A DNA stretch of 23,721 bases from assembly GCF_003334815.1 (NCBI RefSeq), contig NZ_QOWO01000049.1. The stretch is one strand, 5' to 3'. The position numbers and the translations under genes were made by a program. Within the stretch, counting starts at the first letter, position 1, and each line of letters starts with the position of its first letter. Source of the stretch: Escherichia coli (GTDB lineage Bacteria > Pseudomonadota > Gammaproteobacteria > Enterobacterales > Enterobacteriaceae). This document shows, piece by piece, positions 19,837 through 20,545 of the stretch. The notes under the pieces were generated by a model, which was not told the origin of the DNA, searched no databases, and saw nothing but the letters and a program-made list of their open reading frames with translations.

Positions 19837-20136
19837 TCATAAACCAAGCCATGATAACCATGCATCTCGCTGCTCCTTTTGTTTCTTAAAAAAAGCAGCT
19901 TGCATACCTGCATTAAATGCAGGCAAGTAAACCCAAGAATCTGCACGAGCACCTTTTTGAGAGCCAGGCTTTATCCAGTGCACAACAGGTAACTTATTAG
20001 ACTCTATCATCGCTTTTACGCTGGATTCTTTACGTCCGATAAGCCTTGCAAACATGGCGTAAGGTACTGCATCTATCGGATATCCCCCCATTTGTACATA
20101 TCCTTCAACACCTGAATCTTTCATTTGTGTTATCAT
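19837..20136 (-). CDS. Phage P2 Cox-like small DNA-binding protein, in the traY position
   Basis: 84-99 aa; as remembered, P2 Cox shares AIPY/AVPY, F-A-LIG, LPV, W-YLPA-N-G and C-terminal R-D-WL-WLGL blocks. Start may be ATG 20134-20136 or ATG 20089-20091 (the latter has a GAAGGA RBS). Same strand as, and directly upstream of, traA. Confidence 0.75.
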   Translation of the reverse strand: MITQMKDSGVEGYVQMGGYPIDAVPYAMFARLIGRKESSVKAMIESNKLPVVHWIKPGSQKGARADSWVYLPAFNAGMQAAFFKKQKEQRDAWLSWLGL

Positions 20137-20242
20137 TTCAAATTGGCCTTTTTATCGTCTGAAATGGTCTACAACTGCCTATTCGAGACAAAACATGGCA
20201 GATGTGACAACTTACTATGGAGAATAATCCAAGGTGGCAGAT
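20137..20242. promoter_or_regulatory. Divergent intergenic switch region between the cox-like and C-like genes, with TGGCAGAT direct repeats
   Basis: 106 bp between divergent starts; TGGCAGAT at 20196-20203 and 20235-20242, AAACATGG at 20191-20198 and 20248-20255; possible -10 TACTAT at 20213-20218 for the C-like gene. Confidence 0.45.
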
Positions 20243-20545
20243 ATGTCAAACATGGGTGAGAAGATTCGCCTGATGCGAAAAGCTGAGGGAATGACCAGAA
20301 AGGAACTAGCTGAATTAATAGACGTTTCTTATGGTAGTCTCACTAACTATGAAACAAAGGGAGTTCTGACAACAGAGACAATCCTCCTGAAACTAACGAA
20401 CCACCCTCGATTCCAAAAGTATGCATTATGGTTAATGACAGGAAAAACATCTGAGGCTGCGGGACAAATCTCTCCGCATCTCTCTCTCAGTGGCTCAGAA
20501 ACCTCAGTTCCTGTTCAGGTTTCAACCAGAAAGCCCCCAGAATAA
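20243..20545 (+). CDS. Phage P2 C-repressor-like protein (immunity repressor family)
   Basis: 100 aa from ATG 20243-20245 (RBS AAGGTGG 5 nt upstream); as remembered, P2 C shares the pattern MSN--EKI-LMRK-E-----LA-L--V-YG-L--YE ... F-KY-LW-MT-----E-GQI-P. Divergent from the cox-like gene, as in the P2 switch. Confidence 0.8.
   Translation: MSNMGEKIRLMRKAEGMTRKELAELIDVSYGSLTNYETKGVLTTETILLKLTNHPRFQKYALWLMTGKTSEAAGQISPHLSLSGSETSVPVQVSTRKPPE

Follow-up and report, generated by a model that had tools for sequence, protein, structure and literature searches.

A phage P2-type C/Cox module in place of the native regulators of an F-type plasmid transfer operon, and its probable role as a transfer switch

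In a 23,721-nucleotide (nt) stretch of an Escherichia coli contig (NZ_QOWO01000049.1; the whole stretch is called the window in the following) we found two divergent genes of phage origin between traM and traA, at the head of an F-type transfer (tra) operon. They encode homologues of the immunity repressor C and of the Cox protein of phage P2. Judged by the profile matches given below, it is close to certain that this is a genuine P2-type C/Cox pair, both in the identity and in the origin of its parts. Moreover, our comparisons suggest that the module controls tra transcription, a P2-like switch having replaced the native regulators of a pCoo-type plasmid, and we consider this the probable explanation of the arrangement. 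The coordinates of the features are collected in Table 1.

The product of the minus-strand gene, of 99 residues (aa), belongs to the Cox family. It matched the Pfam family PF10743 (Phage_Cox) with an E-value of 1.1e-20 over model positions 8-87 of 87 and PHROG 272, 'Cox-like excisionase and repressor', with 2.8e-32, and its residues 21-99 align with residues 9-87 of the solved P2 Cox chain 4LHF (2.8e-21). Alternative start codons are present at 20124, which is the call of the Prokaryotic Genome Annotation Pipeline (PGAP) and gives 95 aa, and at 20091. The plus-strand gene codes for a P2-type C repressor of 100 aa, which matched PDB entries 2L49/2XCJ with 4.1e-16 (residues 3-90 on 4-92), PHROG 147 with 7.5e-29 and also the HTH_3 family, with the helix-turn-helix (HTH) in the N-terminal part. 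The peptidase domain that serves self-cleavage is not present in this protein. PGAP labels the two products 'Cox family DNA-binding protein' and 'helix-turn-helix domain-containing protein'. An earlier sequence-only reading of the window had likened the products at these positions to P2 C and Cox; the Pfam, PHROG and PDB profiles bear this out, and the similarity to the P2 proteins themselves, which it had named as a check, is significant for both (4LHF and 2L49/2XCJ).

The start codons of the two genes are 106 bp apart, and the gaps in phage relatives are alike. Using tblastn, we found 40-43% identity for Cox and 43-45% for C in phages of the P2 group (P2, W-phi and L-413C), and all matches in phage genomes fell within the P2-like phages (Peduoviridae). 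The top phage with both genes adjacent and divergent was Xuanwuvirus P884B11, with 54% identity for Cox and 56% for C.

The remainder of the window is 96-97% identical to dozens of E. coli F-type transfer regions. TraM lies beside oriT, the co-directional genes traA-traL-traE-traK-traB...traG-traT form the operon, and both TraA and TraM scored above the curated NCBIfam cut-offs. Alignment to pCoo revealed the borders of the exchanged DNA. Homology from the side of traA ends at about 19745, inside traY, and resumes at about 20830, some 45 bp past the traM stop codon, with the right junction at about 20800-20830. Hence, about 1.1 kb (~19745-20830) has been exchanged for about 1.1 kb of native DNA. 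Within the insert the phage-like DNA is confined to about 19837-20637, and its outer part beyond C (20548-20637) is similar, in blastn and tblastx, to the intergenic region between C and the integrase gene int of prophage relatives (L015-L018, L022 and L023). Of traY only the 3' end is left, where tblastn with residues 42-53 of pCoo TraY gave 75% identity.

In pCoo-type relatives the interval between traM and traA codes for a 93-aa HTH protein and a 55-aa TraY-like protein. The former carries its HTH in the N-terminal half, with weak Pfam hints only, and fits, by description, the 'TraJV' protein of MOBF12 group C (PMC5102898). Thus, the pair sits exactly in the traJ-traY slot between traM and traA, as had been read from the sequence, and cox is indeed the first gene in the direction of traA. 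The frame of F and R100 in which this had been put has to be corrected, since the backbone is pCoo-like and the displaced regulator is the 93-aa HTH protein and not the TraJ of F. Modular replacement itself, also proposed in that reading, is supported by the mapped junctions. The AT-richness to which it had pointed is real (38% GC vs 53% in traA-traT), but it is no mark of replacement, because the displaced segment of pCoo has 36% GC and oriT 34%. Low GC as a sign of foreign origin was rejected for this reason, the native segment being equally AT-rich.

The exchange removed the native control genes. Apart from the traY tail of 12-13 codons, homologues of the backbone TraY and of the protein in TraJ position were found neither in the window nor in the complete sister plasmid pJNE25-005_2, which is 100% identical to the window across the module. 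The earlier statement that no traJ- or traY-like open reading frame (ORF) is present therefore holds for a complete plasmid as well. PGAP annotates no traJ, traY or finO on pJNE25-005_2, and a scan of the Rfam models gave no match to FinP or to the traJ 5' UTR/leader at E-values up to 1. The order traM-traJ-traY-traA of classical F-like plasmids does not occur in the window. The native tra promoter has been lost too, since it must have sat upstream of traY, in the region that was replaced. Nor is the layout that of a P2-like prophage, since C is followed by traM and cox by traA, and the annotation of pJNE25-005_2 contains neither an integrase nor any other phage gene. For Cox to act as an excisionase, a cognate tyrosine integrase and attachment sites would be expected, and the sister plasmid has no such integrase in its annotation.

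To see how widely the arrangement occurs, we searched 72,556 PLSDB plasmids, 5,426 complete E. coli genomes, 100,044 GTDB species-representative genomes, IMG/VR and INPHARED. In PLSDB, tblastn with Cox gave 26 records, with tra context only in CP099215 and CP099211, which represent the same 128-kb IncF plasmid from a UK pig farm. The other records examined were whole P2-like prophages in IncC plasmids or chromosome-like records. The segment 19600-19737 upstream of traA is shared by 158 PLSDB records, two of which continue into the cox module, and one complete E. coli genome carries the module. The exact Cox of 95 aa is present in 59 index blocks of public assemblies. All ten places listed for the window allele show the order traM-HTH-Cox-traA-traL-traE-traK-traB, on contigs or plasmids of about 49-181 kb. 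A third allele, L034 (Logan SRR36162490), was found in eight index blocks, where the sufficiently long contigs keep the same gene order. Altogether, tra context was seen in each of the 15 examined loci with flanking genes. The more distant Cox relatives that we examined (55-60% identity) all belong to standard int-C-cox-...-gpA prophages, and the pairing of C/Cox with tra is therefore specific to this plasmid lineage. One E. coli strain (GCA_053902965) has the traM-C-cox-traA module on two plasmids, AP045071 of 99 kb and AP045070 of 181 kb, which would share one repressor specificity.

We compared three alleles, namely the window type, L034 and CP099215/CP099211. The traY junction is identical in all of them, which points to a single capture event. 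The L034 module lies at 2605-3340, next to another traM allele (89% identity) from which it is separated by about 850 bp of unrelated DNA, and homology to the window starts only at about 20799. Therefore, recombination has placed the module beside more than one traM flank. In each of the 13 plasmid loci checked, both genes are intact. Among the three alleles, cox shows a dS of 0.29-0.48 and a dN/dS of 0.03-0.07, and C a dS of 0.10-0.23 and a dN/dS of 0.09-0.14, values that show purifying selection on both genes in their plasmid setting. The 106-bp intergenic region differs between alleles at three to five positions, while the predicted cox promoter, the candidate operator half-sites (bar one base) and the four candidate Cox boxes described below are unchanged, in spite of heavy silent substitution in the adjacent cox codons. 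This is the pattern expected if both genes and their regulatory DNA are maintained as working parts on the plasmid. As a further observation, dS between alleles is 0.03-0.08 for traA, traL and traE and 0.10-0.26 for C and traM, compared with the 0.29-0.48 of cox, so that the region appears to be a mosaic in which the module is older than the surrounding backbone.

We scanned 19500-21000 for promoters and terminators, scoring promoter matches over 12 positions. The sole 10/12 match in this range, here called candidate Pe, faces cox and traA and has its -35 hexamer inside the first codons of C. In P884B11, TTGACA and TATCCT can be recognized by eye at the homologous place. No terminator-like site was scored anywhere in this range, the stretch between candidate Pe and traA included. 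The predicted -10 of Pe is flanked by two 15-bp direct repeats, the candidate operator half-sites O1 and O2, which are identical at 13 of 15 positions and lie 39 bp apart. Even when up to two mismatches are allowed, the window contains no further copy. The pair was present in all 12 plasmid loci then compared and in none of nine other loci, prophage relatives included. At the homologous position P884B11 carries a comparable pair of different sequence, TGCCCGAT(G/A)TGGCAT, with a spacing of 31 bp. It is known that P2-type C proteins bind two direct repeats, of which the sequence, the length (8-10 bp) and the spacing (22, 26 or 34 bp) vary among heteroimmune phages (PMC1904268). In their layout, the candidate sites O1 and O2 would carry the hallmark of P2-type repressor operators.

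Close to cox, four phased hexamers may represent Cox boxes. The array occurs once in the window and in none of 200 shuffles. A candidate promoter for C, Pc, overlaps these hexamers, as Pc of P2 overlaps its cox-boxes, which are spaced 10-11 bp (PMC3936717). The prophage relatives show, by eye, boxes of the TGGCT type with a phase of about 11 bp at the homologous place. The candidate boxes read TGGYCT, and the consensus of the P2 cox-boxes is TTAAA(G/C)NC(A/C). If candidate Pc is real, it follows that Pe and Pc face each other.

From these elements we propose that the captured piece, made up of the C gene, cox and the 106-bp promoter-operator region, now serves as the master switch of the tra operon. 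Transcription from Pe would cover cox, cross the 232-nt spacer and continue into traA and the remaining tra genes. Dimers of C on the two half-sites flanking the -10 would keep transfer off in established hosts. Cox would polymerise on the phased boxes over Pc and silence C, so that the on state would sustain itself, and the choice would be made sharper by Pe and Pc being transcribed against each other. In that case competence for transfer would be bistable, with two exclusive states. In a recipient that has no C, Pe should fire at once, similar to zygotic induction, giving a burst of onward transfer before repression is established. A response to the SOS system is not expected, since C has no self-cleavage domain.

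Several points weigh against this proposal. Candidate Pc matches at only 8 of 12 positions, which is below the threshold of the scan, and was picked by eye. The Cox-box motif was itself taken from the array in question, which makes its uniqueness in the window weak evidence. Strong hairpins and a U7 run in the spacer between traY and traA could weaken read-through; these hairpins belong to the backbone, and tra transcription crosses the same spacer in the parental plasmids. The lineage is rare, with one of the 5,426 complete E. coli genomes and, among the 72,556 PLSDB plasmids, one plasmid in two records. Furthermore, TraY is a component of the F relaxosome, which cannot form or support transfer without sbyA, the site of TraY in oriT (PMC12117103). 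As a consequence of the loss of TraY, these plasmids might transfer poorly or need help in trans.

The pair could instead be a passenger that protects from, or interferes with, P2-like phages or P4-like satellites, with tra driven by a separate, more or less constitutive promoter located in the cox-traA spacer. P2-type C proteins confer superinfection immunity and Cox activates the satellite P4 (PMC3936717), and two weak promoter-like matches of 9/12 each are present in this spacer (19826-19798 and 19754-19727). By eye, the key bases of both matches differ in CP099215, and they were rejected as alternative traA promoters. The operator pair has no match in IMG/VR or in the 100,044 species-representative genomes, no other near-identical module DNA (roughly >=85% over the 1.1 kb) was found in the 5,426 complete E. 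coli genomes, and the closest phage C is only 63% identical. Membership of the pair in a defence system was rejected, because Cox has no match among the PADLOC defence families and C matches generic HTH models only. Every locus seen has the module precisely in the slot of the native regulators and the tra promoter, and on balance we regard the passenger role as unlikely. The exchange might also be a disabling scar, in which the activator, TraY and the tra promoter were lost and the plasmids became silent or defective in transfer, persisting vertically or by mobilisation with phage genes that have not yet decayed. The rarity of the lineage, the requirement of the F relaxosome for TraY and its oriT site (PMC12117103) and the decay of the traY remnant to a stop codon would agree with this. 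It is hard to reconcile with a cox dS of 0.3-0.5 among alleles when both genes are intact in 13/13 loci at a dN/dS of <=0.14, with the almost invariant regulatory DNA and with the full-length ORFs from traA to traT. Plasmids of about 71, 99, 128 and 181 kb carry the module, and it lies beside two traM alleles, which argues for spread and maintained function, and we think it quite unlikely that the locus is a scar.

Cox may have taken on more than the repression of Pc, bending DNA at oriT or at the traM and tra promoters and so replacing TraY as an accessory protein of the relaxosome. The Cox protein of P2 wraps and bends DNA as an architectural protein and takes part in recombination complexes (PMC3936717), TraY is gone with no other obvious substitute, and Cox is under stronger constraint than C. 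We found no second phased array of candidate boxes at oriT (21284-21731) or elsewhere in the window, judged in a weak and circular test, because the motif was derived from the array near cox itself. The action of Cox at oriT in place of TraY, as suggested by the sequence-only reading, has therefore no support in the sequence, and we hold this dual role to be very doubtful. The full combination, in which the module is a bistable master control of tra with a heritable all-or-none state, fires in new recipients, can be flipped by antirepressors of phages or satellites and includes Cox in the architectural role of TraY, seems to us distinctly improbable. Taken together, control of tra transcription by the module remains the reading that we prefer.

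The closest known system is the P2-like immunity switch (P2, W-phi, P2 Hy dis). Both have homologous proteins, divergent genes about 100 bp apart and, as predicted here, a strong cox-facing promoter whose -35 falls at the start of the C gene, direct repeats flanking the -10 and phased boxes proximal to cox. In contrast to the phages, the plasmid locus has no integrase after C and no replication or early genes after cox, where an F-type operon of about 30 kb follows instead, and it offers neither an attachment site nor a recombinase partner for an excisionase role of Cox. The sequence of the repeats, their length of 15 bp and their spacing of 39 bp are new, with no phage match in the collections searched. 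Control of conjugative elements by phage-type repressors is known from SetR in the integrative and conjugative elements (ICEs) SXT/R391 and from ImmR/ImmA in ICEBs1, and in CTnDOT the excision proteins Xis2d/Exc also activate tra genes. These systems resemble the present one in that a phage-derived repressor holds the transfer genes off and a small protein of the excisionase family is tied to their expression. However, they belong to integrating elements, use cleavable repressors of the lambda type or antirepressor proteases and respond to SOS or other signals, whereas the plasmid described here is of the F type and replicates autonomously, and its P2-type repressor lacks a self-cleavage domain and is paired with Cox.

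Among F-like MOBF12 plasmids, TraJ/TraY/FinOP have been described for group A, 'TraJV' for group C and EntFR for group D, and the authors raised the question whether further schemes of regulation are found in nature (Fernandez-Lopez et al. 2016, PMC5102898). As in these plasmids, the regulators of the present locus lie between traM and traA, ahead of one long tra operon, and again the regulators are swapped and the structural genes kept. Those schemes rely on a dedicated activator, in some cases combined with an antisense RNA, and on the ribbon-helix-helix protein TraY, whereas here a repressor/anti-repressor pair of phage origin replaces both, and the activator, TraY, FinP and FinO were not found. 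We found no description of a P2-type C/Cox pair heading an F-type tra operon in full-text searches of the literature or in a 2026 survey of the diversity of F-like transfer operons. The parts were already known and annotated; for a previous discussion of the arrangement itself, we found none.

The database comparisons indicate that the source phage is unsampled. A peptide-seeded search of IMG/VR gave at most 55% identity, and in INPHARED C reached at most 63%. It had been suggested that C and Cox cross-react among P2-like phages and that the plasmid pair could couple conjugation to resident P2-like prophages. The former conflicts with the literature, in which these phages are heteroimmune (PMC1904268), and for the latter we found no support, as the operator specificity has no phage counterpart in IMG/VR and the species-representative genomes. 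The DNA-recognition helix of Cox reads SVKAMIESN here and AVRRMIDKG in P2 Cox. In view of this difference, activation of P4-type satellites by this Cox cannot be assumed.

Resistance and virulence genes in E. coli are carried mainly by F-like plasmids, whose transfer frequency depends on the short regulatory region between traM and traA. If our proposal is true, a two-state switch with mutually exclusive states would take the place of a graded activator that is damped by antisense RNA. The module of about 0.8 kb would provide a compact natural system for bistable transfer competence and a clear case of regulatory parts moving from phage to plasmid, and the plasmids would allow testing of whether an F-type relaxosome can function without TraY. 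Surveys that score the presence of traJ/traY would misclassify such plasmids as having no regulator.

Table 1. Features in and around the C/Cox module, with positions in the window (strand + or -)
Feature	Position	Strand	Basis or remark
cox homologue, P2 Cox-family winged-helix DNA-binding protein	19837-20136	-	Pfam, PHROG, PDB, dN/dS
C homologue, P2-type immunity repressor	20243-20545	+	PDB 2L49/2XCJ, PHROG 147, HTH_3, dN/dS
Shine-Dalgarno sequence of the C gene, AAGGTGG	20231-20237		
Candidate Pe, promoter of cox (by inference of traA onwards)	20221-20249	-	TTGACA 20249-20244, 17 nt, TATTCT 20226-20221; 10/12
Candidate operator half-site O1, TGGCAGATATGTCAA	20235-20249	+	overlaps the Pe -35 and the C start codon
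Candidate operator half-site O2, TGGCAGATGTGACAA	20196-20210	+	just downstream of the predicted Pe start point
Candidate Pc, promoter for C	20137-20165	+	TTCAAA 20137-20142, 17 nt, TGAAAT 20160-20165; by eye
Four hexamers, candidate Cox boxes	20144-20180	+	TGGCCT, TCGTCT, TGGTCT, CTGCCT; phased 11, 10, 10 bp
traY 3' remnant, 13 codons	19702-19743	-	NSVALKI*EALGMN* vs pCoo TraY ...KTAALKIEEALGMKE; internal stop
Left junction and spacer between cox and the traY remnant	19745-19836		most divergent stretch between alleles; weak promoter-like matches not conserved
Leftover phage C-int spacer	20546-20637		phage-derived DNA ends before any integrase sequence
Hairpin with 16-nt arms in the native traY-traA spacer	19661-19697	-	inverted repeat; kept in pCoo, present in fold; backbone, not phage module
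Stem-loop with 18-nt arms, then U-rich run on the minus strand	20678-20743	-	fold -32.7 kcal/mol, z -3.5
traA, F-type pilin, first structural tra gene, downstream of cox	19242-19601	-	NCBIfam TIGR02758, 114 bits vs cut-off 76.6; PGAP start same in sister plasmid
traM, relaxosome protein, convergent with C	20876-21262	-	NCBIfam NF010267, 156 bits vs cut-off 104

The stem-loop between C and traM is likely to be the terminator of traM, and it would block read-through from traM antisense into C. An equivalent stem-loop sequence is visible in L034 despite the different traM flank.

Upstream of traM, the oriT-proximal part 21355-21511 is dense in repeats of the AGAGTATA type and includes a perfect 18-nt inverted repeat (21442-21459 / 21464-21481) as well as a 22-nt tandem pair. 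Presumably, these repeats are the TraM binding sites of this traM allele. Further upstream, a 23-nt inverted repeat with 91% complementarity and a 1-nt gap (21860-21906) lies inside a lytic transglycosylase (SLT) gene at 21732-22238. At 22483-22538, where the DUF932 gene (22535-23392, minus strand) has its 3' end, lies a perfect 56-bp palindrome of 28 + 28 nt with no spacer (ATGATAATATAAGTAAAGCCCCGAAAAA / TTTTTCGGGGCTTTACTTATATTATCAT). The sole Rfam signals that we obtained, all sub-threshold, fall on this palindrome on both strands, and it may be a bidirectional terminator. In the annotation of pJNE25-005_2 (33666-35426) the SLT and DUF932 genes are frameshifted or truncated, while they are intact in the window, so either the window derives from a different, unsampled plasmid or the assembly of pJNE25-005_2 contains indel errors.

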